The notes: generated from the letters alone by a model not told the origin. A stretch of DNA of 64,000 bases from Vicinamibacteria bacterium (GCA_963668695.2 CAXXLQ010000004.1:3392001-3456000), one strand, 5' to 3'; numbered from the stretch's first letter, positions 4,030 to 39,448 are shown. Program-made: numbers and translations.

Positions 4030-4134
4030 AGGCCGCGCTCGTTCTCGATCAGCAGTGCGAGTTTCGCTGCGCTGGCGCGCAGCGGTGCCGGTTTGAGGGC
4101 CCCCACCGGGAGAACTGGCGGAGGTCGGCGTCCC
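4030..4134. repeat. REP-like palindromic element carrying one 18-nt micro-insert (4101-4118)
   Basis: Minus strand reads GGGACGCCGACCTCCG[18-mer]GCCCTCAAACCGGCAC-hairpin-CGCACTGCTG, matching elements at 33932 and 45612. Confidence 0.6.
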
Positions 4135-4206
4135 GATGCGTTCCGTTCTTGCCGCGGGTCGGCGGAGTGAGTTCCGCCCGCTCCGCGGGCGGCGGCGCTC
4201 CTTCCC

Positions 4207-6249
4207 CTAGTTCTGGGGTTCGTCCGTGGTCATTTCGTCGGTGATCGCGAAGCGCTCGAACCAGTTGCGGAGGAGGAGCTGCACCCGCAGGAAGTTCGTC
4301 GGGGGGAGGCTGCGGCTGTGCCAGCCGTCGGTCAGCCGCACCATCGCCGTCGGAATCTTCCTCATCTTGAGCGCCCGGTAGTACTGCTCGGTCTGCTCCA
4401 TCGGGGTGCGGAGGTCCTTCTCTCCGGTCATGAGCATCGTCGGGGTGGTGACGTTGCCGACGTACATGAGCGTCGAGCGCCGGAGGTGTTCCTCGGGGTC
4501 GTCCCACGGCATTTTCTCGAAGTTCCGGTACCAGCTCGCCCCGTCGGTCGTCCCCACGAAGCTCAGCCAGTTGGTCACCGGGGCCTTCGAAACCGCCGCC
4601 GTGAAGCGGTCTGTATTACCGACAATCCAGGAGGTCAGCACGCCCCCGCCGCTGCCGCCGTACACGAACAGGTTGCGGTCATCGATATAGCCGCGGGAGA
4701 TGATTTCGTCCACCCCCGCCATCAGGTCGTCGAGATCCTTCCCCGGATAGGCGTTCTTGATCTCGTTGCCGAACGAACTGCCGTAGCCGCTGCTGCCGCG
4801 CGGGTTCGTGTAGAGCACCACGTAACCGTTCGCCGCGTGGTCCTGGTTCTTGAAGTCGAACCCGCTGTGGTACATCGAGTGCGGTCCGCCGTGGATCCGG
4901 AGGATCAGCGGGTACTTGCGCGACGGATCGAAGTCGGGCGGCTTCACGATCCAGCCGTGGATATCGAGGTCGTCCGGGGACTTGTACCAGAGCTCCTCGA
5001 CCTCCCCGAGGCGCACCTCGGCGAGCACGGAAGCGTTCGTGACGTGGAGGGTCGTCAGCTCCTCGGGCGAATCCACCGCGAAGGCCACCAGGTTCCCGGG
5101 GGTGTGGTACGAGCTCACCACCCCCACCGCGGTCCCGTCTTCGCTCACGGTGGAAACCGACAGCATGTGATTCCCGGAGCTGACCGGCCGGACCTCGCCC
5201 TCGACCGGGGCGAAGTAGAGGTTGTTGGTGCCGCGGAGCTGGCCGCCGAAATAGACGCCGCTGCCGTCGGCGGACCAGCCCACGATCCCGGGCCGGCGGC
5301 CCATCTCGGTGGCGATGATCCGCGGGTTGCTCCCGTCGCTCTCCATGACGTAGAGGCCTTCCTCCCGGTAGGTGTCCGTCGTGTGGTCCATCCCGGTGTA
5401 GGCGATCAGGCTGCCATCCGGAGAGGGGACGGGTCCCGAGTCCGGACCGCTGCGGCTCGTGAGGGCCGTGATCCGGCCGGTCGCCACCTCGACCCGGTAG
5501 ATCTCGGATTCGCGCCAGGCGTGTTCCGCGTCCGCCGTTCTCAGCGAGGTGAAGACGATGTCGGCTCCGTCCCCCACGAAGCGGGGGCCGTCGTGGTGGA
5601 AGTCGCCGCTCGTCAACTGGCGCGGCGTTCCACCGTCCGCACTCACCACGAAGATGTGCCGGAAACCGGCCGGGAAATAGCCCTGCCCGTCGCGCCGGTA
5701 GTTGAGGCGGGTGACGATCCGCGGGGGCTTTGTCCATTCGGCGCCTTCGGGCGCCTTCGGCATGTCGATCGCCCAGTCGGGATCGGGCCCCGGATCCACC
5801 ACCGCCCGGAAGGCGATGGATCCGCTGTCCGGCGCCCAGACGAGCTGCGAGGGCGGGCGGTCAAGCCGGGTCACCTGGCTCTCCGCGCCCTCGGCGTCCA
5901 TCCAGCGCACGAAGATCTGGCCGTCGCGGAGGAAGGCGATCCGGGTGCCGTCCGGCGACCAGCGCGGGCTGCCCCCCTCGGTGAGGAACCGGTTTCTCGA
6001 GCCGTCGGCGCCGATCTGCCAGAGCTCGGTCTTCCAGCGATCCTTCATCGCGTCCACGAAGCGCCGCTCGTACACCACGCTCTCCCCGTCCGGGGAGATC
6101 TGCGGGCTCTGGACCGCCTCCCAGGAGAGGTAGTCGGCGAGCTCGAGCGGCCGCATTCCGTCTTGCGCCGCGGCGCCGGCCGCGAAGAGGAGCAGGACCG
6201 CCGCGAGCATCCCGCCAACACGCCAGGTCTTCATTCCGTGGATCCGCAT
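4207..6249 (-). CDS. S9 family prolyl oligopeptidase (dipeptidyl aminopeptidase/acylaminoacyl peptidase)
   Basis: Signal peptide, PD40 propeller repeats (SPDG), IHGGPH, catalytic GGSGGG, TGEKDLRTP Asp and C-terminal His. Confidence 0.93.
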   Translation of the reverse strand: MRIHGMKTWRVGGMLAAVLLLFAAGAAAQDGMRPLELADYLSWEAVQSPQISPDGESVVYERRFVDAMKDRWKTELWQIGADGSRNRFLTEGGSPRWSPDGTRIAFLRDGQIFVRWMDAEGAESQVTRLDRPPSQLVWAPDSGSIAFRAVVDPGPDPDWAIDMPKAPEGAEWTKPPRIVTRLNYRRDGQGYFPAGFRHIFVVSADGGTPRQLTSGDFHHDGPRFVGDGADIVFTSLRTADAEHAWRESEIYRVEVATGRITALTSRSGPDSGPVPSPDGSLIAYTGMDHTTDTYREEGLYVMESDGSNPRIIATEMGRRPGIVGWSADGSGVYFGGQLRGTNNLYFAPVEGEVRPVSSGNHMLSVSTVSEDGTAVGVVSSYHTPGNLVAFAVDSPEELTTLHVTNASVLAEVRLGEVEELWYKSPDDLDIHGWIVKPPDFDPSRKYPLILRIHGGPHSMYHSGFDFKNQDHAANGYVVLYTNPRGSSGYGSSFGNEIKNAYPGKDLDDLMAGVDEIISRGYIDDRNLFVYGGSGGGVLTSWIVGNTDRFTAAVSKAPVTNWLSFVGTTDGASWYRNFEKMPWDDPEEHLRRSTLMYVGNVTTPTMLMTGEKDLRTPMEQTEQYYRALKMRKIPTAMVRLTDGWHSRSLPPTNFLRVQLLLRNWFERFAITDEMTTDEPQN

Positions 6250-6456
6250 TCGGGCACCTCCGTTGGAGCGACGCCGCACCGTAGGGCGCCACCGGGCGAG
6301 TTTACGGGACACGGCCGTTGGATGTCGGGACACCATTGGCCCACGGAAGCCGGCTTTCGAAATCCCGGTGGTTAGTATCGAAGGCGTGCGGCGATGCGGG
6401 GAGTCGTATCTCCAAGCCGGAGTTCGTCCCTGGGGATCGCTGGAGAGGAGACCAAA

Positions 6457-7572
6457 GTGAACCAGAAAACCGCGACAGGTTCTATCTCAAGAGTACGCAT
6501 TGCGTTGCTGCCGGCGCTGGTTTTCGCCCTCGCCGCGGGGTTCGGCTGCTCGCGACCGGCGGTCGAGACGGCGGCGGAGGCCGTCTATCCGGGCGCGTCG
6601 TGGGACCGGATCGCGGATCCCGCCTCCACAGGATTTTCGGCCGAGGCGCTGGACGCGATCCACCCGTACGTGGACGGGATCAACACCTCCGCCGTGATGG
6701 TCGTGGTCGGGGGGCGCGTCCTCTTCGAGCACGGGCCCGTGGATTCGCTCAGCTATCTCGCCTCGGTCCGGAAGAGCATCCTCGCCATGCTTTACGGCCA
6801 CTACGTGGAGGACGGGACGATAGATCTCGAACTCACGCTCGAGGATCTGGGCATGGACGATGTCCAGGGCCTCCTCCCGATCGAGAAACGGGCGCGGGTG
6901 TTGGATCTCGTCACCGCGCGCTCCGGGGTCTATCACCCGGCCTCGAACGCGGGGGACAACCTCGCGGACGCCCCGCCCCGCGGCTCGCAGGAGCCCGGCA
7001 CGTACTACCTGTACAGCAACTGGGACTTCAACGCGGCGGGTGCGGTCTTCGAACAACTTACGGGGCGCAACATCTACGACGCGCTCGAAACCGACCTCGC
7101 GCTCCCCCTCGGATTCGAGGACTGGCACCGGTGGATCCACCGCAAGTCGGGAGACGCGACGCGATCGCACAACCTCGCCTACCACATGACGCTCTCGACC
7201 CGCGACATGGCCCGGATCGGATACCTGATGCTTCGGGGCGGCATTTGGAGGGAGGAGCGTGTGCTTCCGCAGGGATGGGCCGAGCGGATTTCGAGCGTGG
7301 TCACGCCGTCGGAGGAGATGAATCCGGAGAGCCGGCGTGGAGGCGAGTTCGGCTACGGCTACATGTGGTGGGTGTGGGACGGCCCGGCGGTGCCGGAGGG
7401 GTTCGCGGGCGCCTACACCGGACGCGGAGCCTACGGCCAGTTCATCACGGTCATCCCGTCGCTCAACATGGTCGTCGCCCACAAGACGGTGCCGGACGTC
7501 CGCACGTCGTGGGACGACTACATGGGGATCCTCGCCCGCCTCGTCGCCGCCCACTGCGGCGCCGACTGCTGA
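6457..7572 (+). CDS. Serine hydrolase, beta-lactamase class C/NylB-like, probable lipoprotein
   Basis: SVRK (SxxK), YSN, TRDMARIG, YGYMWW, GAYGQ; GTG 6457 follows a GGAGAGGAG RBS; lipobox-like GFGC. Confidence 0.88.
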   Translation: MNQKTATGSISRVRIALLPALVFALAAGFGCSRPAVETAAEAVYPGASWDRIADPASTGFSAEALDAIHPYVDGINTSAVMVVVGGRVLFEHGPVDSLSYLASVRKSILAMLYGHYVEDGTIDLELTLEDLGMDDVQGLLPIEKRARVLDLVTARSGVYHPASNAGDNLADAPPRGSQEPGTYYLYSNWDFNAAGAVFEQLTGRNIYDALETDLALPLGFEDWHRWIHRKSGDATRSHNLAYHMTLSTRDMARIGYLMLRGGIWREERVLPQGWAERISSVVTPSEEMNPESRRGGEFGYGYMWWVWDGPAVPEGFAGAYTGRGAYGQFITVIPSLNMVVAHKTVPDVRTSWDDYMGILARLVAAHCGADC

Positions 7573-7659
7573 CGGTTTTGGCGTAAACAGATCCGAAGGA
7601 GGCCGGAACAGCGAGTGAAGGGACTCCAATAGGTTGACTCAGAGGAGACTCCAGGGCAT

Positions 7660-8084
7660 GTGCTGGATGGGGACAACGTCCGCCACGGACTGAACCGGGA
7701 CCTGGGTTTCACCGAGGCCGACCGCGTGGAAAACATCCGGAGGGTCGCCGAGGTGGCCCGGCTCATGGTGGACGCCGGCCTGATCGTGATCGTCGCTTTC
7801 ATCAGTCCTTTCCGCTCGGAACGAGAGCAGGCCCGAGCCCTGTTCGGACCGGGTGAATTCCGGGAGATCTCGTAGACGCGCCGCTCGCCATCTGTGAAGA
7901 GCGGGATCCAAAGGGCCTCTACGCCCGCGCGAGGAAGGGCGAGGTGAAGAACTTCACCGGGACCAGCAGCCCCTACGAACCCTACGAACCCTACGAACCC
8001 CCCGAACGCCCGGACCTCCGGCTGGATACCAGCACCGAATCACCGGAGCGCTGCGTGGAACGGGTTCTGGAGTCGCTCGGGTAG
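7660..8084 (+). pseudogene. cysC: Adenylyl-sulfate kinase remnant (5' truncated, frameshifted)
   Basis: [27 protein letters not shown], 1-nt deletion near 7870, then [30 protein letters not shown]; no N-terminal P-loop; 9-bp CCCTACGAA x3 at 7971-7997. Confidence 0.85.
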
Positions 8085-8101
8085 GTCGGAAGCGCCGTAA
8101 G

Positions 8102-9394
8102 TCAGGTCACCGGGTTTCGGCGCTGGAAGCGGGGACCTTGGTACTCCTCCCCTGCCAACACCCCCCGAAGCGCTTCGACGGCGTCCCAAACGTCCCGGTA
8201 ACGAACGTAGAGCGGCGCAAACCCGAAACGAAGCAGGTCGGGTTCCCGGAAGTCGCCTACCACCCCCCGCGCGATCAGCGCCTGCATGACCGGGTAGGCA
8301 TCCGGATGGCGGAGCGAAACCTGACTCCCCCGCTCCCGGGCGTCCCGGGGGCTCACCGATGTGACCCCGAACTCCCCGAGCCGTTCGTCGGCCAGGCGGA
8401 GGAAGAGGTCCCCGAGCGCCTCACTTTTGCGGCGCAACGCGTCCATGTCCACGCCTTCGAAGGTGCGGAGCCCCTCGTCGAGTGCGGTCATCGAGAGGAT
8501 CCCCGGAGTTCCGGTCACAAAGCGGCGCATCCCGGACGCCGGCCGGTAGCGTGTTTCGAACGCGAACGGGCTCCGGTGTCCCATCCAGCCGCAGAGCGGT
8601 GTGTCGAGCGTCTGCTGGAACTCACGGGCCACATAGAGGAACCCGGGGGCTCCGGGGCCGCCGTTCAGGTACTTGTACCCGCAGCCCACCGCGAACTCGA
8701 CGCGGTCCTCGTTCAGCCGAAGGGGGAAGGCTCCCACGCTGTGGCTGAGATCCCAGACCAGCGGGACACCCGCCGCGCGGCCGGCCTCGGTGAGCGCGCG
8801 CAGGTCGCGCTTCCGGCCGGTCCGAAAGTCCACCTGGGTCAGGGTCGCGACCGCCACCTCCGGTCCCATGGCCGCCTCGAAGTCATCCGGCGGGACGAGT
8901 TGGAGGCGCGCCCCGCTGTCGCCGAGCAGGTTCGTGAGCCCCTCCGCGATGTAGAGGTCCGTGGGGAAGTTGCTCTCTTCGGCCAGCACCACCTGGCGCG
9001 AACCCGGCCGGCGCAGCAAGGCTGCGAGCAGCTTGAAGAGGTTCAGGGAAACCGAATCGGCGGCGATCACCTCGTCCTCCCCGGCGCCGAGCAGGGGAGC
9101 GATCCGGGCTCCCACCCGCTCGGGCAGACGGAACCAGCCGTGGCGGTTCCAGGAAGCGATCAGGTCCTCTCCCCACTCGCCGGCGATCACCCCCCCAACC
9201 CGGTCGGGAATGGACCTCGAGGGGGGCCCGAGCGAGTTCCCATCCAGGTAGACAACGCCGTCCGGCAGCAGGAACCGCTCGCGAAACCCGGCCAGCGGGT
9301 CGCTTCGGTCCCGTTCCAGCAGATCGTCCCCGGTGAGCGGCCGCGAACCGTCCCCAACGTCGCCGATCACCTCGCCGGTCACCTCGTCGATCAT
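8102..9394 (-). CDS. kynU: Kynureninase
   Basis: YLDGNSLG, WDLSHSVG, GCGYKYLNGGPG (PLP Lys), RGSQVS, GDFREPD. Confidence 0.95.
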   Translation of the reverse strand: MIDEVTGEVIGDVGDGSRPLTGDDLLERDRSDPLAGFRERFLLPDGVVYLDGNSLGPPSRSIPDRVGGVIAGEWGEDLIASWNRHGWFRLPERVGARIAPLLGAGEDEVIAADSVSLNLFKLLAALLRRPGSRQVVLAEESNFPTDLYIAEGLTNLLGDSGARLQLVPPDDFEAAMGPEVAVATLTQVDFRTGRKRDLRALTEAGRAAGVPLVWDLSHSVGAFPLRLNEDRVEFAVGCGYKYLNGGPGAPGFLYVAREFQQTLDTPLCGWMGHRSPFAFETRYRPASGMRRFVTGTPGILSMTALDEGLRTFEGVDMDALRRKSEALGDLFLRLADERLGEFGVTSVSPRDARERGSQVSLRHPDAYPVMQALIARGVVGDFREPDLLRFGFAPLYVRYRDVWDAVEALRGVLAGEEYQGPRFQRRNPVT

Positions 9395-9501
9395 CGGGCG
9401 CCGTCTCCGGCGGGGCAGCCCGGGGCTATAAAACAGGCGCAAGACTCCCGGTTCCGGTCCATCAAGGGATTATTCCGCGAGAACGGCCATCCCGCACTAC
9501 A

Positions 9502-12500
9502 TTGCGCGAACAAGAACCCGCCTTCGAGGAACCGCCACTGACCTCCCTGCTCTCCCGCTTCGACCCCGCGGTTGCCGGCTGGTTCCGAGAGCGTTTCGAA
9601 GCGCCCACCGAACCCCAGGCAAAGGGCTGGCCCGCGATCGCACGGGGAGAAGACGTCCTGATCACCGCGCCTACCGGCTCGGGCAAGACGCTCGCCGCGT
9701 TCCTGTTCGCGCTGGACCGGCTCACCCGGGAGGCCCGCGTCGGACCGCTGGCGGACGAAACGCGCGTCGTCTATGTCTCGCCGCTCAAGGCGCTGAGCGC
9801 CGATATCCGCCGGAATCTCGAAATCCCGCTCGCCGGAATCGCCGCGCGGGCCGCGGCGGCGGGCGATCCCCTTCCCGCGCTCCGCGCCGAACTCCGCACC
9901 GGAGACACGCCTGCCGCTCAGCGGGCCCGGATGACCCGGAAGCCGCCCCACATCCTGGTCACGACGCCGGAATCGCTCTACCTGCTGCTCACCGCCGCCC
10001 GCGGCCGTGAGCTCCTCTCGACCGCGGACACCGTGATCGTGGACGAGATCCACGCGCTGGCGCGCGACAAGCGCGGAAGCCATCTCGCGCTCTCGCTCGA
10101 ACGCCTCGACCGGATCGCAGGGCGCCGCCTGCAGCGCATCGGCCTCTCCGCCACCGTCCGGCCGATATCCGAGGTGGCCGGCTTCCTGAGCCCGCGCACG
10201 CCGGGGGGACCGACCGTCATTGACGTCGGCCACCGCCGGGAACTCGACCTCGCGGTGGAGATTCCGGACAGCGAACTGGGTGCGGTGGCGAGCCACGAGA
10301 TCATGGAGGACATCCGGGACCGGATCGCCACCCTCATCGAGGAACACGACACCACCCTCGTGTTCGTGAATACCCGCCGGATGGCGGAGCGGCTGACCCA
10401 CGATCTGGGCGAACGGCTTCCCGCGGGGGCCGTACTCGCCCATCACGGCAGCCTCGCCCGGGAGTTGCGGCTCGAGGCCGAGCGCCGGCTCCAGACCGGG
10501 GAGGTCCGGGCCATCGTCGCGACAGCCTCCCTCGAGCTCGGGATCGACATCGGTTCGGTGAACCTGGTCTGCCAGCTCGGCTCGCCCCGTTCCATCGCGG
10601 TCGCCCTGCAACGGGTGGGCCGCTCGGGACACTGGCTCGGCGCCACCCCGAAAGGGCGGTTCTTTCCCACCACCCGCGATGAACTGGTCGAGTGTGCGGC
10701 ACTGGTCGCCGCGATGGAGTCGGGAGACCTGGACCGGATCCGCATCCCCCAGGCGCCCCTCGACATCCTCGCCCAGCAGCTCGTGGCGGAAACGGGAGCC
10801 ACGCCCGAGCAGCGGCACGATCTGGACCAGCTGTTCGATTTCGTGCGGTGCGCCTACCCCTACCGGCAACTCGAGCGGACGGTGTTCGACGACCTCGTCG
10901 CCATGCTCTCGGAAGGCATCGCGACCGCGCGCGGACGGCGCGGCGCCTACCTGCACCGGGACACCGTTTCCGGCACGGTGCGCGCCCGCCGGGGCGCCCG
11001 GCTGGCGGCCATCCAGAGCGGCGGAGCGATCCCGGAGACGGCGCAATATCAAGTTGTCGCCGAACCCGACGACCGGATCGTAGGCCAGCTCGACGAGGAC
11101 TTCGCCATCGAGAGCTACCGGGGCGACGTCTTTTTGCTCGGGACCACCGCCTGGCGGATCCGGCGGATCGCCGAAGGACAGGTCCGGGTCGAAGACGCCC
11201 AGGGCGCGGCGCCGACCATTCCCTTCTGGAGGGGAGAAGCGCCGGGCCGGACCCCCGAACTGAGCGTCCGGGTGGCGGAACTCCGCGAACGAGTGGATGA
11301 AAGCCTGCCGGAGAAGGCCCGCGTCGAGCTGAGCGCGGCGTCGCACCTCGACGGCGCCGGCGCCGACCAGCTCATCCGCTATCTCGCCGCCGGCCGGGCC
11401 GCGCTGGGCGCCATGCCGAGCCAGCGCACCGTGGTTGCGGAGCGGTTCTTCGACGAATCGGGCGGGATGCAGCTCGTGATCCACGCTCCCTTCGGGAGCC
11501 GGATCAACCGGGCCTGGGGTCTCGCGCTCCGGAAGCGCTTCTGCCGGTCCTTCAACCTGGAACTCCAGGCGGCGGCAACCGATGACGGCATCGTCATCTC
11601 CCTGACCGACCTGCACTCCTTCCCGCTGGAGTCGGTGTTCTCGTTCCTGAAGCCGGCAACCCTCGAGCCGGTGCTGACCCAGGCGGTTCTGGGCGTACCC
11701 CTGTTCTTCGTGCGCTGGCGCTGGGCCGCATCCCGGGCGCTCGCGGTGCCCCGCCGGCGGTCCGGCAAGCGGGTGCCGCCACCCATCCAGCGGATGCTCA
11801 CCGACGACTTGCTCGCCGCGGTCTTCCCGGACCAGGCCGCCTGCGCCGAAAACCTTGCCGGTGAGGTGCGGATTCCGAAACACCCGCTGGTTGACGAGGC
11901 GATCGCCGATTGCCTCCACGAAGCGTTGGACCTCGAGGGCCTGCGAAAGCTCCTCGAAAACATCCGGAGCGGACGGGTGCGCACGGTGGCGGTGGACACC
12001 CCGGAAGCGTCGCCCTTCGCGGCCGAGATTCTGAACGCCAATCCGTTCGCATTCCTCGATCCGGCGCCCCTGGAGGAGCGCCGCGCCCGGGCCGTCCGGA
12101 TGCGGCGGTCGCTGCCCCCCGAACTCGATTCCGAGGCGGTCCTCGACCCCGAGGCGATCGAGCAGGCAGCGGCGGAAGCGGCGCCGCCGGTCCGGGACGC
12201 GGACGAACTCCACGACGCGCTGCTCACCCTGGGAGCGATGCGGGAGACGCCGGAATGGGCCGGATGGTTCGCCGAGCTCGAAACCGGCCGCCGCGCTACC
12301 GCGTTTTCGGCGAGCGGGGGTCGGCTATGGGTGGCCGTCGAGCGGCTCGGTATCGCCCGAGCAGTCTGGGCCCGCGCGGTCTGGCCGGATGCTCCCCCGC
12401 CCGCGGCCGGCCCGACGGAATCGTCCGGGGTCCCGGACACCCGGGCCGCTGCGGCTGCCGCGATTCTTCGCGGAGTCATGGACTCCTCCGGCCCCATGAC

Positions 12501-13836: not shown

Positions 13837-13846
13837 ATATGGTAAT

Positions 13847-14496: not shown

Positions 14497-14545
14497 CCCA
14501 TCGCGATCCGGCGCCCGCTGATGAGTTGACTGCTACCCTGCGTGG

Positions 14546-25426: not shown

Positions 25427-25628
25427 CTGGAACCTCCAGTGATTGGGGAAGCGGCTAATCGTAAGGCTTTCCACGGCCGGTTGGCATCGCCGAAGCGAGG
25501 CGAACATGCGGAACGGCGGCCTCTGGCCGGCACGGTCGCCTGCAAGGGACCAAATCAGCGCCAAGACCCCCGAAAACCACGGGTGTCCACCTGCTACGTC
25601 CGCGGATGTTGGAGCGTTCCATGGGCTA

Positions 25629-25846
25629 GCAGCCTGTGGTGAAACCCAGGCGGCGTTCGAGCGGCGATCCATCCCGGCTGAACCACTCCGCTTCGCTCCG
25701 TTCTGCGTTGCGTTTCGGTCGAAATACACCCGGGCCAGTTCTCCCGGTGGGGGCTCCTCCCTCACGCGCCTTGTCAGCCGGGCGCCTCGCCCCCACCGGG
25801 AGAACTGGCCGCTCTCGGCGCTCACCCGGATCCCACCACAGGCTGC
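25629..25846 (+). mobile_element. MITE family 1, copy A (218 bp; 18-mer at sites 2 and 4)
   Basis: Ends GCAGCCTGTGGTG...CACCACAGGCTGC, flanked by TA on both sides; supplies part of the TAG stop of the adjacent gene. Confidence 0.85.
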
Positions 25847-27915
25847 TAGCGCAGAACGTCCAGCAGATTCGAATGATCGTCCGTCCACAGATAGCGCTCG
25901 TGGGGTTCGGCGGCGTCCCCCGTCCACGGTTCCGCCCGTCCCAGCACGCTCGGATCGGTGATGAAGTCGGTGTTCAGGGTGAGCAGGACCCAGGTCGCGG
26001 TGTAGCGGAAACGTTCCGGTTCCGGGTCGCTGACCATCAACAGCGACAGGAAGTCGAGCTGGAGCGACTGAGCCCGGATCACGGGAGCGAGGTCCACGTG
26101 CCGGTTCGAAATGTGGACGGCAATCGTGCCGCCCGGGGCAAGGCGGCTCTGGTACAGCTCGAAAGCCTCGGCCGTCAGCAGATGGACCGGGATGGCGTCC
26201 CCGGCAAAGGCGTCGAGCACGATCACGTCGAACGCCGGTTCCCCCTCCTGCTGTTCCCTCAGCAGACTCAGTCGGCCGTCGCCGAGCACGACCTCGACAT
26301 CCACCGGCGTATCGGTGAGGAAGGTGAAGAAGTCGCGCGCCGCGCTCACCACCTGAGGGTCGATCTCGTAGAAGCGGAACAGGTCGCCCCTTCGCCCATG
26401 AACGAGTATCGACCCGGTTCCCAATCCGACCACCGCCACCCGGAGGGGCTGGACCAGCCGCCGCTTCGGGTGCCGGTTCAGCACCGCCTCGATGCCGGTG
26501 CCCTCGTAGTAGTAGAGGGTGGGCTCCATGCGGCGTCCGGGAGCGAACCACTGGGAACCGTGCGCGATCCCGCCGTGCCACATGTCGCGGCGCCACTCCG
26601 GGGTGCCCGGGTAAGCCTCCATCACCCGTACGACCCCGAAGAAGTTCCGCGTGGCGGAGAGCGGACGCCGGTGCTCGAGCGCGCTGATCGCGATGACGAT
26701 TCCGAGAGTTGCCGCCGGGACCAGCTTCCACCGCAGGGCCCGGGCTCTCTCGGCGGACGGCCTGCCGACAAGGAAGGCAACCCCCACCGCCAGGACGAGG
26801 GCGAGCGGATACTCCCAGACGTTCGGGAACAGCAACGGACTCCCGAGCGACGCCGCGAGCCCCCCGAGAGCTCCGCCCGCCGTCATCGAGAGATAAAAGC
26901 CCGTGAGGCGGGACGGAACGGGCTTCCTCCGCGCGATCTCCCCATGGACGATCCAGCAACCGATGAACAGGAAGGAGAGCGCCGCAGCAGCGTGTGCGAT
27001 CAAAGCGCTGTCGAGGCCGTAGGTGATGTCCTGGAACCACACGAAGAGGCACGCCGCCACCGAAACGAGTAACAACGGAGGGAGGACGCGGCGGGGGTAC
27101 GGGTTTCCCCCGCGGAACGCCAGGATGAAGGTGAGCAGATAGATGGCGAGTGGAGCGATCCAGAGGAACGGGACCGCCGCCACGTCCCGGGTCAGATGGG
27201 TAGTAACCGCCACCAGCGCCAGCGAGCCGACCGCGGCCAGCAGGAACACCGAAACGTGAAATCCCTGGGCTCCGCGAGGCTCGGGCCGCAAGGCGCCCAC
27301 CGGGGTCCGCGCCGAGAAGAAACCGGCGAGAGTCGTTACGAGGGCGAGCAGAAGGAATCCCCCCGACCACAACTCCGCCTGTCCGGCGAGTCCGACAAGC
27401 GGTTCGAGCAGCAGCGGGTAGCTGGCGAGACCGATGAGGGAGCCCGCGTTCGAGAGCGCGTAGAACCGGTACACGTCGGGCGCCGGCGCTTCGCCCGCTC
27501 CCGGACCGCCGGCGCGCGCCAGCCATACCGAGACCAGCGGAGTGGTTGCGGCGAGCGCGAAGAAGGCGGGCCCAAGGGTGACGAGGAGCGTGAGGAGGAT
27601 CCAGCCCGCCGGAGCCTCCCCGCCCGCGGGAGCCCAGTCGGGTCCGGGGATCGGCGGAAGACAGAACAGGGCGGCCAGACCCAGAACGAGTGCGTGGACC
27701 GCCACCTGAATCCGCGGAGGGAACCGGGTAGCCAGCAGATGCGCGTAGAGATATCCGCCCAGGAGGACTGCCTGGAAGAAGAAGAGCGCCACGGCCCAGA
27801 CCATGGGCGCCCCCCCGTACCAGGGAAGCAGGCTCCGCGCTGCCAGCGGCTGCACGACGAAAAGCAGCAGCGCGCCCAGGAAGACCGCGGCGCCGGAGAT
27901 CCAGATTCTGCTCAC
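25846..27915 (-). CDS. Fused membrane domain/spermidine synthase-like SAM-binding protein
   Basis: LLFVVQP, PWYGGAPMVW, YALSNAGS, RNFFGVVRV, VVGLGTG, YEIDP, GDGRLSL, LDAFAGDAIPVHLLT, WTDDHSNL. Confidence 0.88.
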   Translation of the reverse strand: MSRIWISGAAVFLGALLLFVVQPLAARSLLPWYGGAPMVWAVALFFFQAVLLGGYLYAHLLATRFPPRIQVAVHALVLGLAALFCLPPIPGPDWAPAGGEAPAGWILLTLLVTLGPAFFALAATTPLVSVWLARAGGPGAGEAPAPDVYRFYALSNAGSLIGLASYPLLLEPLVGLAGQAELWSGGFLLLALVTTLAGFFSARTPVGALRPEPRGAQGFHVSVFLLAAVGSLALVAVTTHLTRDVAAVPFLWIAPLAIYLLTFILAFRGGNPYPRRVLPPLLLVSVAACLFVWFQDITYGLDSALIAHAAAALSFLFIGCWIVHGEIARRKPVPSRLTGFYLSMTAGGALGGLAASLGSPLLFPNVWEYPLALVLAVGVAFLVGRPSAERARALRWKLVPAATLGIVIAISALEHRRPLSATRNFFGVVRVMEAYPGTPEWRRDMWHGGIAHGSQWFAPGRRMEPTLYYYEGTGIEAVLNRHPKRRLVQPLRVAVVGLGTGSILVHGRRGDLFRFYEIDPQVVSAARDFFTFLTDTPVDVEVVLGDGRLSLLREQQEGEPAFDVIVLDAFAGDAIPVHLLTAEAFELYQSRLAPGGTIAVHISNRHVDLAPVIRAQSLQLDFLSLLMVSDPEPERFRYTATWVLLTLNTDFITDPSVLGRAEPWTGDAAEPHERYLWTDDHSNLLDVLR

Positions 27916-31842: not shown

Positions 31843-31878
31843 TCCTTTCGAAAGCCCCCGCCATCCGCACGGTGCTTA

Positions 31879-32059: not shown

Positions 32060-32061
32060 TA

Positions 32062-32217
32062 ACAGCCTGTGGCGAAACCCAGGCGGCCCAGTTCTCCCGG
32101 TGGGGGCTCCTCCCTCACGCGCCTTGCCAGCCGGACCCCCACCGGGAGAACTGGGCCTCGCCCCCACCGGGAGGACTGGCCGGTCTCGGCGCTCACCCGG
32201 GTTCCACCACAGGCTGT
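32062..32217 (+). mobile_element. MITE family 1, copy C (156 bp; three 18-mers, 80-bp internal deletion)
   Basis: Same ends; the segment between sites 1 and 2 is absent, leaving a single 18-mer at the junction. Confidence 0.8.
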
Positions 32218-32219
32218 TA

Positions 32220-32432
32220 GGGCTGTTGGCAGCCGGTGGCGAAACCCTGAAGGCAACCATCCGCGGCGCGTAGCGCCGCGGGGGTGGGGTGTGGGGAGGG
32301 GTGTCCCCTCCCCACCGGAGACGGCGGAGCGAATCGCCCACCAACCCGTGGGGAAAGCGCCCCGCCCGCACCCAAACCGCCAGATTCGGCGCACGGGACG
32401 CCCGGCGCGTGCGGGGTGCTTTCGCCACGGGC
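32220..32432. repeat. Second MITE-like element with related ends but different interior
   Basis: GCCGGTGGCGAAACCC...GCTTTCGCCACGGGC followed by TA; internal hairpin GTGGGGAGGGG-TGT-CCCCTCCCCAC. Confidence 0.55.
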
Positions 32433-33013
32433 TACTGCCAGGCCGCCGGCGCGATGAGCACCTCGATTTCCTCCTCGGCAACGGTGGCGTCGCTTGTTTC
32501 GAGTCGCGCCCGCACCAACCAGCGAAAACGGCCCTCGAAGGACCGATAGGAAAAACGGGCGTCCTCGGGGATCGGGAGCTCCGAGGTGACCTCCCACTGG
32601 CCCCCGGCCGGCAGTGACTCGCCGCGGCAGAGCTCATGATCCAGCGACAGCACCTTCCGGCTCGCCCCCTGCGCGTCACGCTGCTCGGCGGTCAGCGTCA
32701 CCCGGACCTCCTTGATCTCGACCGGCCGCCTTGTCACGATGCGAACCGCGCAGCGGATCGCTCCACCTGGCACGGCCGCTTCGCTGAGGCCAAGATCACA
32801 AACCGAAAACGGGTGCCACCCCAGAAACCACACGGTCGCGCCCGCTGAGCGAATGACGAAAAAAGCCACCAGGAGGCCACCGAGCAGCCAGGGCAGCGTC
32901 CAGTTGTAAAAGGTCGCAAGGTGGACAAAGAAGAGCGCCCCCAAAACGGTGCCGGAAAGCGAGAGCAGCGAGCGCCGCTTGTCGCGGGCGATGAGCGAAG
33001 TCCAGACGAGCAT
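32432..33013 (-). CDS. Hypothetical membrane-anchored protein with a C-terminal beta-rich domain
   Basis: Two N-terminal hydrophobic helices, coding-like composition. Confidence 0.6.
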   Translation of the reverse strand: MLVWTSLIARDKRRSLLSLSGTVLGALFFVHLATFYNWTLPWLLGGLLVAFFVIRSAGATVWFLGWHPFSVCDLGLSEAAVPGGAIRCAVRIVTRRPVEIKEVRVTLTAEQRDAQGASRKVLSLDHELCRGESLPAGGQWEVTSELPIPEDARFSYRSFEGRFRWLVRARLETSDATVAEEEIEVLIAPAAWQ

Positions 33014-33046
33014 GGCCGGCCGTCAGCTTCCCGAGAGGACCAGCTT

Positions 33047-33916: not shown

Positions 33917-34083
33917 GCAGCGGGATGGCGTGGGAACGCCGGCCTTCAGGCCGGCACCGCCCGCCGAAAGGCGGGCGAGAGCACGCGCTGCCGACGTGCG
34001 TGAGGCGCGCCAATGCCGGAAACGGACAGCGTCACCGTTGCGGGTGGCTGAGCCGGGCTATCGCGTGAGCAACGGGATGGCGT
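33910..34083. repeat. REP-like element (33932-33977) bracketed by a 22-bp direct repeat
   Basis: CGCGTGAGCAGCGGGATGGCGT (33910-33931) and CGCGTGAGCAACGGGATGGCGT (34062-34083); REP GGGAACGCCGGCCTTCAGGCCGGCAC plus hairpin GCCCGCC-GAAA-GGCGGGC. Confidence 0.75.
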
Positions 34084-34732
34084 CCGGACTCACCCGCGCC
34101 CCGGTTACCCGCCAGGCCCAGATCCCACGTCGCTGAAACAGGATGTCAGCCCAGAGCGGATCCTCGTCCGGGGGATCGTTCTGGACTCCCAGCCGAACGG
34201 CGAAGTCGTTCCACCCCTCGTAGCCGGCGCTCACCGATACCCCGCCCACCCGGTCGGACTCCTGCTGCGCTTCCCCGCCGAGATCGAGGAAGGCCGACCA
34301 TCCTTTCGCGGCGGAGGGGCCCTCGCGGAGCGCCCGGTCCACCCCCTCGGGGGTCGCGAACCGGTCAATCATCGCCTCGCCCACGGCGACTGCGAGTTGC
34401 CCCCCCAGATCAGGCGCCGGCTCGGGGGTTTCGGATCCCCCGTCTTCCAACTCGGCGCTTCGCCGGCTCTCGGCCCGTTGCGAGGCTCCGACCGTGCGGC
34501 GCAACTCGCTCTTGAGATTCTCCCGAACCGCTTCGAAGTCCACGAAGTCGTGGAGAGTGTCCGCATCCCCGAGGGCGACCGCCTCGCGGATGCGCCAGGC
34601 CGCGAAGTAGGGGCCCAGATAGATGCTGGCGCCGAGGCCCAGGAAAACCGCCCAGCCAAGGAGCAGATAAAGACGCCGGCGGCTCACTTGGACAATACTA
34701 ACGGCCGGGAATCCCTCGGGTTCCCGAAACAA
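34058..34732 (-). CDS. DUF2939-like membrane-anchored protein
   Basis: TM helix, then PYFAAWRIREAV..DADTLHDFVDFEAVRENLKSEL, MIDRFATPEG, WRVT. Confidence 0.7.
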   Translation of the reverse strand: MFREPEGFPAVSIVQVSRRRLYLLLGWAVFLGLGASIYLGPYFAAWRIREAVALGDADTLHDFVDFEAVRENLKSELRRTVGASQRAESRRSAELEDGGSETPEPAPDLGGQLAVAVGEAMIDRFATPEGVDRALREGPSAAKGWSAFLDLGGEAQQESDRVGGVSVSAGYEGWNDFAVRLGVQNDPPDEDPLWADILFQRRGIWAWRVTGARVSPDAIPLLTR

Positions 34733-34761
34733 CCGCCCCGGATCCGGGGCCCCGGGAAACA

Positions 34762-35727
34762 GTGGGAAAACTCGTCGCTCCTCCGGTCGAATCGGCCGAG
34801 TCCTCCGTCCATTTCGCCCTGGACGGAGGCGTCTTCGGCGGCCTTACCGAAGCCCATCTGCAACACGCCATTTCGCCCCGTGAGTTGGCGGGCTTCCAGC
34901 GGGATGGCTACCTCGTCATTCCGAACGCGCTCGGCAAGGGTGAGTTGGCCCGTCTCCTCGAGGCAGTGGACCGCCTCGATGAACGGGAGCGCGGGCGCCT
35001 GGAACTCGCTCCGGGCGACATGATGTCCCGCTTCTGTGTCATTCGCTTCGACCCGGCGTTCCTCGAACTCGTCAGTTGGGTTTGGACGTTTCCCAAGGTG
35101 TGGGGCATCCTCGGCTGGAACATCCAGCTCTACATCTCGCATCTGGTGGTGTACCCGCCGGAAACCTGGGGCGGCCAACAGTGTCGGGCGCCTGTCTGGC
35201 ACCAGGACAGTGGCCGTCCGGTCCTGGAGTTGGAGCGCCCCGCTCCCCGGCTCTCGGTGAAGGTTGCCTATTGGCTCACCGACACGCACGGCGGAGGCCG
35301 CGGCGCCATGGAGGTGATTCCGGGGAGCCACCGGCTCGACGCGCCGCCACCCGAGTGCGACGATCCGGAATGGGATGGCCGGTTCCTGCTGGAGGCGTCC
35401 CCCGGCGACGCGGTCATCTTCGACCGCCGGCTCTGGCACCGTCACGGCAAGAACACCTCCGACGTGGTGCGCAAGGCCCTTTTCTTCGGGTACAGCTACC
35501 GGTGGCTCCGGGCGCTCGACTACTCGGCGATGCCGGAAGCGCTGCTTGAGCGCTGCGATCCGGTCCTCCGGCAGCTCCTTGGAGACGGCCTTACGGAAGT
35601 GGGGTGGTACCAACCGCAGCCCGAAGACGTGCCGCTTCGATCCTGGCTTGCCGCCCGCGTGGGCGAAGAGGGGCTCTGGCAACCTCCCTCCTCCCAGCCA
35701 CAGCAGGAACTGGGGTCCCGGGAGTGA
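34762..35727 (+). CDS. Phytanoyl-CoA dioxygenase (PhyH) family Fe/2OG oxygenase
   Basis: [17 protein letters not shown] (HxD), [20 protein letters not shown]. Confidence 0.88.
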
Positions 35728-36176
35728 TCGGGGCGCGGGGGGCGCTGGCCGCCATCGCCCTCGGTTCGGCGTTCGCCCTGGCTTCGATGGCCGGTGTCCC
35801 GCCCGCCCCACAAGCGGAACCGAGCGCCGAACCCCTCTCGGTGGGAGAGCTGCGGGATCGGGCTCGAGAAATCCTCGCCGGAGTCCAGGAACGCGAGGTT
35901 CCTCTATCGGTGGCCCGTCGACAGATCGAACAGCTCCTGCGCGACCTGAAAGCGCTGGGCGAAGCGGAAGGCTGGAGCCCGGTGAACCGCCGCCTCGAAA
36001 TGACGATCGCCCGGCCCGAGGACCTCCGCCCCACCGTCACCGAGGAATGTCCCCTCTTCTTCGAGGAGGAGCTCATCCAGCTCTGCCCGCTCGACCAGTC
36101 CCGTTCGGAAATCTGGGGCAACCAGGTGCTGGTCTGCGAGTTCGCCTGCGCCCCGGAATCAGATCCGGCCCGGTGA
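35724..36176 (+). CDS. Hypothetical secreted protein with a Cys-containing C-terminus
   Basis: GTGA overlaps on both sides; signal peptide; four Cys in the C-terminal region. Confidence 0.6.
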
Positions 36177-37744
36177 CTGTGCGGTCCGGGCGGTCGCGCC
36201 GCACCCTGCGGCCGCTCTACCGGCCCAAAGACGCACCGGGAGGCGAAGAGCGGACCGGCGTACCGGGCGTCCCACCCTTCACCCGCGGAATCCGCACCGG
36301 CGGGTACCGCGATCGGCTCTGGACTATGCGCCAGTACGCGGGCTACGCCACTGCGGCCGAATCCAACCGCCGCTACCGGTATCTGCTCGAAAGCGGACAG
36401 ACGGGCCTGTCGGTGGCCTTCGATCTGCCCACCCAGATCGGCTACGACTCCGACCACCCGCTGGCGGCGGGTGAAGTGGGCCGCGTCGGGGTCGCCATCG
36501 ATTCCCTCGATGACATGGAAACGCTCTTCCGAGGCATCGCTCTCGACGGCGTTTCGACCTCGATGACGATCAACGCGACGGCTCCCATTCTGGTCGCGCT
36601 CTACGTGGCGGCGGCCCGGCGCCAGGGAGTGCCGCTTTCGAAGATCGCCGGAACCGTCCAGAACGACATCCTCAAGGAGTACGCGGCACGGGGCACCTGG
36701 ATCTATCCGCCCGAGCCGTCCATGCGGCTCGCCACCGACCTCATCGAGTGGAGCCGCCGGGAGTTGCCACGCTTCCAGCCAGTGAGCGTGAGCGGGTATC
36801 ACATGCGGGAAGCCGGCTGCACCGCAGCGCAGGAGGTGGGTTTCACACTGGCCAACGGCCTCGCCTACGTCCAGTGGACCGTGGAACGGGGTCTGTCGGT
36901 GGACGAGGTGGCAACCCGCGTTTCCTTCTTTTTCAACGCCCACCGGGACTTCCTGGAGGAGGTCGCCAAGTTCCGCGCGGCCCGCCGCCTCTGGGCGCGG
37001 CTTCTGCAAGAGCGTTTCGGCTCCGAGAGCCCGAGGGCCCAGATGCTGCGGTTCCACGCCCAGACCGCGGGGTCCACCCTGACGGCCCTCGAACCCCAGG
37101 TGAATGTGGTCCGCACCACCCTGGAAGCTCTCGCCGCGGTGCTCGGCGGGACGCAATCGCTTCATACGAACGCGCTCGACGAGGCACTGGGGCTTCCGAC
37201 CGAGGAAACGGCCGAACTAGCGCTCCGCACCCAGCAGGTGATCGCCTTCGAGAGCGGGGTGGCGGCGACGGCCGATCCGCTCGGCGGCTCGTGGGCCATC
37301 GAGGCGCTGACCGACCAGATCGAGGCGGAGGCGCTCGACTGGATCGAGCAGGTGGACCGGTTGGGCGGCGCGGTTGCGGCCATCAGGGCGGGTTTCGTTC
37401 AGGCGCGCATCCAGGAAGCCGCCTACACCTACCAGCAGGACGTGGAAGCCGGCGACGAAATCGTCGTGGGGGTAAACCGATTCCGGCAGGAGGGAGAGCG
37501 AAGCCGCGTCGAACCGTTCGAACTGGATGCGGAAACGGAAACCTCCCAGGTCGAACGGGTGCGGCGGGTGCGCGCCCGCAGAGAGGCGACGGAGGTGGAC
37601 CGCACGCTTCGGGAGGTCCGCCAAGTGGCCGCCGAAGGAGGCAACCTGATGCCCGCCATTCTGGCCGCGGTTTCGGCGATGGCCACCGTCGGGGAGATCA
37701 GCGACGCGCTGAGGGCCGTCTTCGGCGAGCACCGGGGCAACTGA
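36173..37744 (+). CDS. Methylmalonyl-CoA mutase, substrate-binding (large) subunit
   Basis: [15 protein letters not shown] (Tyr specificity residue), [38 protein letters not shown]; no B12-binding domain. Confidence 0.93.
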
Positions 37745-37748
37745 TCCG

Positions 37749-38369
37749 GTGCCCGAACCGGTGGCGCCCTCTTTCGGCGAGATCCTGGCCGCCGGGCGTT
37801 ACTCCGACTTTCGGGAGCGGCTCCGCGGAAGCGGCTGCACGCGCTGCGGGCTCGCGGCAGGCAGGACCCACATCGTGGTGGACCGCGGGAATCCGGAGGC
37901 CGCCATCCTCGCGGTCGGAGAAGCGCCCGGGGCTTCCGAGGACGCCCGAGGCATCGCATTCTCTGGACGCGCCGGGAAGATGCTGGACGAACTCTTCCGA
38001 GGCGCCGGCCTCTCGACCGACGAACACCTGTTCATCGTGAATGTGGTGAAGTGCCGCCCGCCCCGCAACCGAGCGCCGCACGCCGAGGAAGCCGCCCGCT
38101 GCCGGCCATTTCTGGAGCGGCAACTCGCCCTCTCACCGGCTCGAATCATCGCGCTCATGGGGGCCACCGCACTACGCCATTTCGCCCCGGAACGCGCGAA
38201 GGGGCCGCTCGGCGCTCAGGTGGGCCGTTTCTTCCGCCTGCCGACCTGGCCTGACCGCGATTTCGTCACGCTCTACCACCCGGCCGCGATCCTGTACAAC
38301 CGGTCGCTGGAGGCGCGTGCGCGGGAGCATGTCCGAGCGCTGGCGGCCCGAATCCAGAGCAGCCGCTGA
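37749..38369 (+). CDS. Uracil-DNA glycosylase, family 4 (4Fe-4S)
   Basis: CTRC, VGEAPG, GRAGKML, NVVKCRPP.NR, YHPAA. Confidence 0.92.
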   Translation: MPEPVAPSFGEILAAGRYSDFRERLRGSGCTRCGLAAGRTHIVVDRGNPEAAILAVGEAPGASEDARGIAFSGRAGKMLDELFRGAGLSTDEHLFIVNVVKCRPPRNRAPHAEEAARCRPFLERQLALSPARIIALMGATALRHFAPERAKGPLGAQVGRFFRLPTWPDRDFVTLYHPAAILYNRSLEARAREHVRALAARIQSSR

Positions 38370-38396
38370 TGGCCCGGCTGATGGCCCGGATCCCTA

Positions 38397-38668
38397 ACAG
38401 CCGGTGGTGAAACCCACGTGAGCGCCGAGGCTGGCCAGTTCTCCCGGTGGGGGCGAGGCCCAGTTCTCCCGGTGGGGCCAGTTCTCCCGGTGGGGGCCCG
38501 GCTGACAAGGCGCGTGAGGGAGGAGCCCCCACCGGGAGAACTGGCCCGGGTGTATTTCGACCGAAACGCAACGCAGAACGCAGCGAAGCGGAGTGGTTCA
38601 GCCGGGATGGATCGCCGGTCGAGCCCCCACCGGGAGAACTGGGCCGCGTGGGTTTTGCCACAGGCTGC
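38397..38668 (-). mobile_element. MITE family 1, copy F (272 bp; five 18-mers)
   Basis: Same ends, TA flanks; length 181+4x18+19. Confidence 0.85.
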
Positions 38669-38731
38669 TAACTCCGCTCGCGGATGTTCCCGGTCACGCT
38701 GCCGACCCGGGACGAGGTGTACTGATCGATG

Positions 38732-38752
38732 ATATATCTCAATGAGATATAT
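38732..38752. promoter_or_regulatory. Putative VapBC autoregulatory operator
   Basis: Perfect AT-rich inverted repeat ATATATCTCA-A-TGAGATATAT just upstream of vapB. Confidence 0.7.
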
Positions 38753-38768
38753 TTTCTGGGAGAGGGTC

Positions 38769-39026
38769 ATGGCACAAACCGCGAAGCTGTTCTGGTCCGG
38801 GCGTTCGCAAGCGGTGCGCCTGCCGAAGTCGTTCCGGATGGAAGGGAGCGAAGTGCGGATCCGGCGTCAAGGCCGCACGGTGATCCTCGAGCCGATCGCA
38901 GAAGACTGGGCGTGGCTTGACGCCATCGGCGGCGCCTTCTCCGACGATTTTTTCGCTGAGGGACGACAGCAACCTGACGAACAGGAACGACCCGCTCTGG
39001 ACACCCTGTTTAACAGCCGGTGGTGA
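38769..39026 (+). CDS. vapB: VapB/VagC AbrB-type antitoxin (C-terminus altered by MITE)
   Basis: MAQTAKLFWSGRSQAVRLPKSFR..EVRIRRQG..VILEP. Confidence 0.92.
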   Translation: MAQTAKLFWSGRSQAVRLPKSFRMEGSEVRIRRQGRTVILEPIAEDWAWLDAIGGAFSDDFFAEGRQQPDEQERPALDTLFNSRW

Positions 39027-39193
39027 AACCCGCGCGGCGTTCGAGCGGCGATCCATCCCGCCTGAACCGCGCCGCTTTGCGGCGCTCTGCGTTGCGTTTC
39101 GGTCGAAATACACTCGGTATTCCTCCCTCACGCGCCTTGTCAGCCGGGCGCCTCACCGCTCTCGGCGCTCACCCGGGTTCCACCACAGGCTGT
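39013..39193 (+). mobile_element. MITE family 1, copy D (181 bp, empty form)
   Basis: ACAGCCGGTGGTGAAACCC...CACCACAGGCTGT, TA flanks. Confidence 0.85.
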
Positions 39194-39195
39194 TA

Positions 39196-39448
39196 ACAGC
39201 CGGTGGTGAAACCCACGCGGCCCAGTTCTCCCGGTGGGGGCTCGGCCGGCGATCCATCCCGGTTGAACCGCGTCGCTTCGCGCCGCTCATCGTTGCGTTT
39301 CGGTCGAAATACACCCGGGCCAGTTCTCCCGGTAGGGGCTCCTCCCTCACGCGCCTTGTCAGCCGGGCCCCCACCGGGAGAACTGGCCCCACCGGGAGAA
39401 CTGGGCCTCACCGGCCTCGGCGCTCACCCGGGTTTCACCACAGGCTGT
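39196..39448 (+). mobile_element. MITE family 1, copy E (253 bp; four 18-mers)
   Basis: Same ends; length 181+4x18. Confidence 0.85.

Follow-up and report, generated by a model that had tools for sequence, protein, structure and literature searches.

Small dispersed repeats (SDRs) of the Nostocaceae, reportedly described by Elhai and colleagues in Genome Research 18:1484 in 2008 and said to comprise the families SDR1-8 of 21-27 nt, are to our knowledge the only described parallel to the element treated here; as far as we know they have been unexplained since 2008 and were considered confined to one cyanobacterial family, and we know of no accepted way of moving for elements this small. Other short repeats include the bacterial interspersed mosaic elements (BIMEs) of Escherichia coli and the BOX elements of pneumococcus, in which short modules occur in variable number and order inside a longer intergenic repeat (with tandem internal modules), and the DNA uptake sequences and uptake signal sequences (DUS/USS), which arise by point mutation and lie in large share inside genes. 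Here we analyse an 18-nt unit (the 18-mer) found in a stretch of 64,000 nt from a Vicinamibacteria bacterium (the window; G000:C4:3392001-3456000) and in the genome it belongs to (G000; 4.10 Mb in four contigs, 67.5% G+C). The 18-mer is among the smallest mobile-looking DNA units known. SDRs are cited in PMC5861425, PMC3116915 and PMC2884548 and BOX elements are named in PMC10969869, as far as the accessible text of these papers goes; according to that of PMC5861425, SDR-like repeats were not found outside Nostocaceae.

The 18-mer has entered unrelated hosts de novo: sites in MITEs (miniature transposable elements with inverted repeats), hairpins of repetitive extragenic palindromes (REPs) and, in frame, protein-coding genes. 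Counted over the genus, the hosts comprise three genes, several types of REP and five sites of the MITE. It is the invariant core of a 20-22-nt cassette (usually the 18-mer followed by GC) and lacks coding capacity, inverted ends and a target duplication. An earlier sequence-only reading of the window had proposed such a discrete unit entering unrelated hosts, and this is what we find: filled and empty states occur both at orthologous sites and between strain variants that seem to have been assembled together.

In an AcrB-family RND transporter gene (PF00873) at C4:394435, G000 and G001 carry an exact in-frame insertion of 18 nt (six residues). It is missing in 8 of the 10 aligned genomes of the genus, where two bases stand in place of the 18-mer plus GC; in six unaligned genomes of the genus the length of the match is that of the empty form. 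The gene mfd holds the unit in frame and exact in G012 and as a decayed 12-nt remnant in G010, and 17 of the 19 aligned loci lack it (nine further loci, from other genera, were left unaligned). The word is also in frame in coaBC of G010, but within a variable loop, so that no clean empty site can be defined. A coding screen of G000 flagged 3 of the 362 copies outside MITEs, which represent two candidate loci, one of them weak. The statement that no copy lies in coding DNA thus holds within the window, but not as a rule, given the in-frame insertions in the RND gene and mfd.

Intergenic hairpins were entered as well. The REP at window position 4101 is plain in the relatives G004 and G008 (G001 is not comparable), whereas in G000 it has the unit and nine further bases replacing two; with such orthologues lacking the unit, the 4101 copy is not a MITE fragment, a possibility that had been raised before. 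Just past a stop codon at about C4:2105911, another REP is plain in the same two relatives and has the 18-mer plus GC replacing one T in G000. Genome-wide, 84 REP hairpins of several types hold the unit between their arms, against about 200 that are empty with a plain loop of 7-8 nt.

Most occurrences are found in one family of MITEs: 1,269 of the 1,631 units of G000 lie in or beside MITE matches and 362 elsewhere. This host is 183 bp long with inverted ends of about 20 nt (1,055 ends were found), and has the target-site duplication and terminal inverted repeats that the 18-mer itself lacks. In 287 full copies a T precedes in 178 and an A follows in 163, which suggests an IS630/Tc1-like TA target. 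No parent element with the same ends was seen among the IS630-type DDE_3 matches checked (L252 and L253, out of four matches in total; the frameshifted pair L254/L255 was unchecked). Lengths of the full copies are quantised at 183, 201/202, 219/220, 237/238, 255/256 and 273/274 nt, that is in steps of 18 or 19. After stripping the units and aligning the copies, five main sites are distinguished (A, 123 copies; B, 26; C, 132; D, 185 units; E, 95), with about a dozen units at odd positions; the 287 copies show 42 occupancy patterns and 69 of them are empty. Every filled site shows one fixed junction form of its own, in which [18] denotes the 18-mer:

Site A: empty GGC-GT-TCG; filled GGC-[18]GC-TCG
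Site B: empty GCG-GC-GCGG; filled GCG-[18]GG-GCGG
Site C: empty CGG-TAT-TCC; filled CGG-G[18]GC-TCC
Site D: empty GAGGC-GCCCGG; filled by a clean gain of 18 nt
Site E: empty CGG-N-GAGG; filled CGG-[18]GC-GAGG (a gain of 19 nt)

The clean gain is restricted to site D, and 1-3 target bases are replaced at the other MITE sites. Models based on target duplication (of GC, GCC or GGCC repeats) were worked by hand and fail at site D, at site A and in the RND gene.

In the window, exactly 15 matches are present at up to two mismatches (0.02 are expected by chance, and none of 100 shuffles reaches 15). From the sequence and the junction table, 14 of these lie within four MITE copies and the remaining one in a REP-type hairpin, while a fifth MITE copy is empty. 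Most of the sequence-only description was reproduced: the coordinates, strands and mismatch counts of all 15 copies, the additive lengths of filled and empty copies, the clean site GAGGC^GCCCGG (site D) without target duplication and with an exact head-to-tail dimer, the GC after the unit, and the non-nested occupancy. Of its account of the siting, the 14 copies in MITEs and one in a REP were retrieved, the number of main sites being five instead of four. The features are as follows (by 18-mer scan and reading of the sequence where no other basis is given; the ends of the filled MITE copies at 25627-25849, 32060-32219 and 38395-38670 are approximate):

4085-4135, minus strand: REP-type element hosting the 4101 copy (by reading; fold z +1.44, hairpin lost)
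4101-4118, minus strand: 18-mer, exact, in the REP-type hairpin (18-mer scan; REP orthologues in G004 and G008 without it)
25627-25849, plus strand: MITE copy filled at C and E (the C and E units pair in a 20-bp stem, -29 kcal/mol, z -6.9)
25735-25752, plus strand: 18-mer, site C (scan; junction CCGGG[18]GCTCC)
25791-25808, minus strand: 18-mer, site E (scan; junction of the site E form)
32060-32219, plus strand: deletion derivative of the MITE, also filled at D (single) and E (by reading)
32088-32105, plus strand: 18-mer at the A/C fusion point
32137-32154, minus strand: 18-mer, site D, single allele with linked GT (GGAC on the plus strand)
32162-32179, minus strand: 18-mer with 1 mismatch (T/C variant at position 6), site E
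38395-38670, minus strand: MITE copy filled at E, D (double), C and A (fold -101.5 kcal/mol, z -9.6; A pairs with E, C with D)
38435-38452, plus strand: 18-mer, site E
38460-38495, plus strand: exact head-to-tail 18-mer dimer, site D, followed by GC
38527-38544, minus strand: 18-mer, site C
38625-38642, minus strand: 18-mer, site A
39011-39195, plus strand: empty MITE copy, used as reference (fold -45.2 kcal/mol, z -2.6)
39194-39450, plus strand: MITE copy filled at A, C and D (double)
39222-39239, plus strand: 18-mer, site A
39320-39337, plus strand: 18-mer with 1 mismatch, site C
39369-39404, minus strand: exact head-to-tail 18-mer dimer, site D

Direct units within a MITE mark deletions, both in the window and in G001: in the derivative at 32060-32219 what lies left of site A is connected through one 18-mer with what lies right of site C, and the same A/C fusion is found in G001. 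A comparison of the window with G001, G004 and G008 shows turnover of the MITEs themselves, so that no 18-mer event can be read there; the empty copy at 39011-39195, for instance, is missing from the orthologous spacer of all three. At 38395-38670, G000 and G001 (L155) have MITEs at one intergenic place in opposite orientation and with different occupancy, which reflects either an inversion between the ends or an independent insertion at one TA. Between 38769 and 39886 two MITEs separate a MazE/AbrB-type antitoxin gene (PF04014) from a PIN-domain toxin gene (PF01850), and the last codons and the stop of the antitoxin gene are supplied by the first of them; the two genes are only about 60 nt apart in G004 and G008, and one shortened MITE lies between them in G001. 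Beside the MITE derivative, positions 32226-32320 hold one more partial end of a MITE as well as a G-rich palindrome (GGGGTGT...CCCCTCCCCACC) belonging to a different family of repeats.

Over the whole of G000 the 1,631 copies at up to two mismatches include 1,288 exact ones and are distributed over the strands as 829 and 802. Some 300 kb occurs two times in the assembly, at 97.6-99.7% identity (contigs C1, C3 and C4:13629-148038 against C4:3783325-3913787), and appears to consist of co-assembled strain variants or an untrimmed circular overlap; these duplicated stretches inflate the copy counts but provide natural allele pairs. Completeness of the genome is 91.7% and its contamination figure 9.3%. 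In the 3.78 Mb of non-duplicated DNA the 18-mer is found 1198, 265, 62, 46, 182 and 880 times at zero to five mismatches, against 0, 0, 0, 10, 117 and 858 times for the reversed word. The resulting ~1,525 units make up 0.73% of the non-duplicated chromosome, and very few are decayed. A C-for-T variant at unit position 6 accounts for 11% of the G000 copies and is seen in other genera too; as judged from the sequences, it is a polymorphism common to several genera. Units form 1,383 arrays (1,248 single, 131 double, 2 triple, one of four units and one of five), preceded by GG in 674, GC in 584 and CG in 104 and followed by GC in 1,137; grouped by flank they fall into 53 classes, 38 of them singletons. 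Outside the MITE, these classes include several REP hairpin types and tandem arrays of 71 bp, which consist of a MITE end plus the unit; arrays of 44 bp also exist. Those of 71-bp period at G000:C4:3582737-3583092 and at L229:3500-3800 and 5700-6100 hold the left MITE end and one 18-mer in up to 6 units, in some of which the 18-mer has internal deletions of 4 nt or larger.

At up to one mismatch the 18-mer is present in all 15 other genomes of the genus (8-776 copies, against 1,566 in G000) and in 4 of the 6 other genera of the family (1-259 copies), and in all of these it is also present in exact form; none was found in 16 genomes of two sister families. Many of the genomes searched are drafts from which repeats may be missing. 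In the other genera the unit is exact and the hosts differ: G019 has it at other MITE positions, G016 and G023 have it in different REP loops, and G018 in arrays of 44 bp. At L184 (G023:C64, around 1440-1520) a stretch of 13 nt from the unit stands five times in head-to-tail order, followed by a full 18-mer and a GCGGG run, which looks like slippage between CCGG words. Carriers are metagenome-assembled genomes (MAGs) of Vicinamibacteria, many from sponges ('Candidatus Marinacidobacterium', Vicinamibacteria, Acidobacteria), and 'sponge metagenome' is the usual label of the public runs in which this stretch occurs. Four unrelated high-G+C records and one viral contig give a lone match each, and these look like chance; since the viral one is the only match in the viral collection and is without the usual flanks, a phage origin was rejected.

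An adapter, barcode or assembly error has a negligible probability. Nothing speaks for such an artefact beyond the short exact nature of the word and the long-read MAG origin of some records, whereas the word turns up in numerous MAGs that were assembled independently, with different assemblers and from different species, stands in frame in conserved genes (in common to G000 and G001), and contigs of runs from two other studies contain the window MITE flanks at 100% identity. The adapter origin that the sequence-only reading had named as a possible pitfall is thereby excluded. Logan contigs of public runs end at the MITEs and none spans them: the 18-mer accounts for breaks in short-read assemblies of these symbionts.

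How filled alleles spread is best seen at site D, where the bases that follow differ with the allele. Genome-wide, the 310 empty alleles are followed by GC in 307 and GT in 3, the 69 single alleles by GT in 65 and GC in 4, and the double alleles by GC in 121 of 121. The single and the double allele each have their own linked base, which fits a few origins combined with gene conversion and lends no support to repeated writing at this site. Filled and empty alleles occur on the same flanking haplotypes; hence, copied tracts must be short. The duplicated stretches hold 47 unit clusters, 41 of which could be anchored (31 identical, 10 different). Alignment covered the six differing clusters with a length difference of up to 60 nt, the four differing by more than 160 nt being left unaligned, and revealed three exact differences of 18 nt, all at site D: twice empty against single and once double against single. 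Linked bases switch each time, which argues for the copying of an allele present in another MITE and against fresh insertion of the unit. The further aligned differences are one 15-nt deletion inside a unit and tandem duplications, of 16 bp and 50 bp, of REP sequence around a unit. Slippage as a source of the polymorphism was rejected, as site D has no microhomology.

Junctions bear the mark of their donors. Inserts bring along 1-9 donor-flank bases that differ by lineage, a signature predicted by copying from resident copies. At window position 4101 the nine extra bases agree with the right flank seen in a different, unit-bearing type of REP. In G010 and G012 two gene insertions and a MITE site all read A[18]GGC, with a left flank that is rare elsewhere, and [18]GC is the form in both the repeats and the RND gene of G000.

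We favour an explanation by patch copying, gene conversion and amplification of carriers, to which we give an even chance. Most of the ~1,500 copies demonstrably owe their existence to riding in the 183-bp MITE, the REP hairpins and their tandem sub-repeats. New sites would originate from breaks at G/C-rich places, often hairpins, that are mended with a short patch copied from a resident copy; the patch would bring a few donor-flank bases and replace 0-4 target bases. The combinations of occupied MITE sites would then stem from gene conversion among more than 500 MITE copies, shuffling one or two filled alleles per site.

Several observations weigh against this explanation. Patch copying alone does not explain the exactness of the 18 bases across genera, which could be due to a trans-acting factor, to fast turnover or to exchange between co-resident symbionts. 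A sharp, exact 18-nt core in at least five genera with differing hosts is unlike untargeted patch repair, and something sequence-specific may define the ends of the 18-mer. Six insertions (at MITE sites A, B, C and D, in the RND gene and in mfd) add precisely 18 nt net, though the replaced bases differ, which seems too precise for repair. Copy numbers fall off steeply with mismatches (1198 exact, then 265, 62 and about 36 above the control), implying that copies are young or constrained. Conversion tracts would need to be very short, the comparison of strain variants rests on a MAG with 9.3% contamination and yields all three 18-nt events at one MITE site, and near-identical strains yielded no case of insertion into unique DNA.

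These points bear on a dedicated sequence-specific enzyme (a recombinase, nuclease-ligase or similar, outside the families searched) that would move the 18-mer, by excision or copying, to G/C-rich or hairpin sites, making the unit a true non-autonomous micro-transposon. We rank such an enzyme second and regard it as unlikely, and keep it in consideration because of the sharp 18-nt core, which stays exact from genus to genus although its hosts diverge, and the net gain of precisely 18 nt seen repeatedly; head-to-tail dimers and arrays of up to 5 units, the flank preference (G[G/C] before, GC after) and the scarcity of decayed copies agree with it as well. Conversely, it would have to do without a reverse transcriptase (RT), without a REP-associated tyrosine transposase (RAYT) or IS200 gene and with a single IS110 in the genome. 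Clean single insertions at site D (single then GC) are just 4 of 69, where a frequent writer would make them, and the donor-flank bases with their lineage-specific pattern are equally hard to reconcile with it. Neither was a master copy seen, whether at an insertion sequence (IS) end or linked to a gene, among the 53 context clusters or in low-copy relatives.

The sequence-only reading had inferred an enzyme writing a fixed oligomer, and its candidates fared poorly. In G000 there are no matches to the Y1 transposase of RAYT/IS200 (PF01797; the control gives hits in 6 of 14 genomes, and completeness is 91.7%) and none to RT (PF00078). Orientation relative to replication is balanced (331/315, 233/252, 68/62, 20/14 and 37/51), so that there is no strand bias either. 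We therefore rejected a reaction by a RAYT or other HUH enzyme (no gene, no bias) and RT-templated addition (retron, diversity-generating retroelement or telomerase-like), and find no support for a lagging-strand mechanism. Junctions with donor-flank bases and alleles with linked single-nucleotide differences likewise give no support to the writing of a fixed oligomer as such.

IS110 deserves separate treatment. The only copy in G000 (L095; G000:C4:482100-483880) is outside the window. Together with relatives of the same subfamily in G008 and G004, it sits in a REP hairpin right after GGAACGCCGG, the position at which the unit sits in other REPs; the G000 element is on the loop side of the hairpin. 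Two of the G004 copies are 8 nt from an 18-mer variant. A second subfamily, which has no member in G000, occurs in the sister species G014 and G009. Of the matches there, 3 of 10 in the former and 3 of 5 in the latter were read; each of these six copies interrupts the 18-mer, has the CC core at either side, and its flanks rejoin to an exact 18-mer. Its elements measure 1,740 bp in G014 and 1,552 bp in G009 (L217-L222, e.g. L217:1728-3467). By reading, their 250-nt leader holds short words matching both target halves, as expected of a bridge RNA; no Rfam match was obtained for it. On this sequence evidence the 18-mer is a target of IS110 and not its scar, the origin suggested earlier: the ends of the two subfamilies (17 copies read) do not resemble the 18-mer.

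A minimal substrate of an IS110 bridge recombinase, moved in trans as a donor-junction-sized mini-element or arising as a half-site by-product at the enzyme's own target, seems very improbable to us. Insertion inside the 18-mer with a duplicated CC core, the use by the other subfamily of the 18-mer's own position in REP hairpins, and the presence of IS110 in the 18-mer-richest genomes all agree with it, and a net gain of 18 nt accompanied by a change of 2 neighbouring bases recalls the exchange of a 2-nt core. Moreover, IS621 makes single-stranded circles and shows half-match recombination, according to the available text of 10.64898/2026.08.31.748434. Nonetheless, the IS ends and the 18-mer have no sequence in common, the two-base flanks are not a duplicated core (CC left, GC right), and a circle of 18-20 nt is far below any known donor. 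IS110 was detected in 11 of 28 genomes of the family, with no match in G019 (a single contig with 70 copies of the unit). The boldest proposal, the smallest mobile unit yet seen in bacteria, moved in trans by a sequence-specific and possibly RNA-guided recombinase (IS110-type or new) recognising only these 18-20 bases and able to put them into hairpins and, in frame, into genes, is in our judgement improbable.

The 18-mer alone does not fold (-1.7 kcal/mol, z -0.09; 89 of 200 shuffles are as good) and is no palindrome. Opposed units pair into stems of 18-20 bp, raising the folding of the MITE from -45 to -101 kcal/mol, and 148 inverted pairs are found at a spacing of 49 nt. It might be argued that the 18-mer is a selected functional word (a protein-binding site, uptake-type signal or RNA hairpin module) of which the mobility is incidental. 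Such stems, the exact conservation throughout the family and the equal use of both strands are in line with this, as is its position next to GC-rich hairpins, which help IS110 target choice in P. putida (10.64898/2026.03.19.712850, accessible text). Selection, however, does not create 18-nt insertions in mfd or the RND gene, copy number ranges from 1 to 1566 among relatives, and no Rfam family matches the MITEs. Also, mirrored sites are not specifically coupled (odds ratios of 1.9 for A-E and 2.5 for C-D, against 5.8 for A-C), by which a structure-preserving paired insertion was rejected too. Overall, a selected word is quite improbable.

Whatever its origin, the 18-mer adds hexapeptides to conserved proteins (mfd, RND pump), creates long perfect hairpins in MITEs and seeds deletions and tandem arrays. 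It is also a natural multi-copy landing pad for bridge-RNA recombinases, which is of practical interest for target choice.

Among known systems, IS621 and ISPpu10 (PMC11208160; 10.64898/2026.03.19.712850) resemble the case in their site-specific insertion in an abundant intergenic repeat by a GC-rich stem-loop, with a 2-nt core at both junctions, as far as the accessible text describes them; this likeness concerns the user of the 18-mer and not its maker, as the 18-mer does not derive from IS ends. Rickettsia palindromic elements likewise enter unrelated genes in frame, lengthening the product by a peptide and leaving the gene unbroken, but are about 150 bp long with a hairpin (PMC10969869, available text), against 18 nt (6 residues) here, where genes are seldom hit (362 non-MITE copies include 2 candidate loci). 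REPs and REPINs with their RAYT (Bertels and Rainey 2011, PMC3116915, accessible part) share the hundreds to thousands of short extragenic copies, the inverted doublets forming hairpins and the role as IS110 targets; the 18-mer, in contrast, is no palindrome, has no RAYT gene in G000, and inserts into other repeats and into genes. It is not a MITE either, given the lack of terminal inverted repeats and target-site duplication and a length of 18 nt against 50-500 bp. As in BIMEs and BOX elements, 18-mer modules vary in number and order inside a longer element and can be tandem, but here one identical word occupies five places, in both orientations, of one element and also occurs alone in unique DNA. 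Unlike DUS/USS, 18-mer copies arise as 18-nt insertions, and few candidate loci lie in genes.

The sequence-only reading did not recognise the unit as a described element. No description of this repeat was found in the literature on Marinacidobacterium, on sponge Acidobacteria with MITEs and on sponge Vicinamibacteria, but the SDRs of Nostocaceae are a close precedent, and by analogy probably the nearest: the 18-mer would work like an SDR, without being filed as a member. Both are very short (SDRs reportedly being likewise around 20 nt), high in copy number, dispersed and sometimes tandem. SDRs are also said to show presence and absence at corresponding sites, as does the 18-mer in the RND gene, mfd and two REPs, and to be nested in MITE-like hairpin repeats, with no protein, no inverted ends and an unexplained mechanism. 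The 18-mer differs in its occurrence in Acidobacteriota, its seemingly unrelated sequence and its length (18 nt against 21-27 nt). Set beside SDRs, in-frame gene insertions, allele-linked junction bases and use as an IS110 target may be new features of the 18-mer. Summarizing, the 18-mer provides a second, independent SDR-like case, with clean empty and filled sites, fixed junction rules, polymorphism between strains and a gradient from 0 to ~1,500 copies within one family, and such a system lets the mechanism be attacked.

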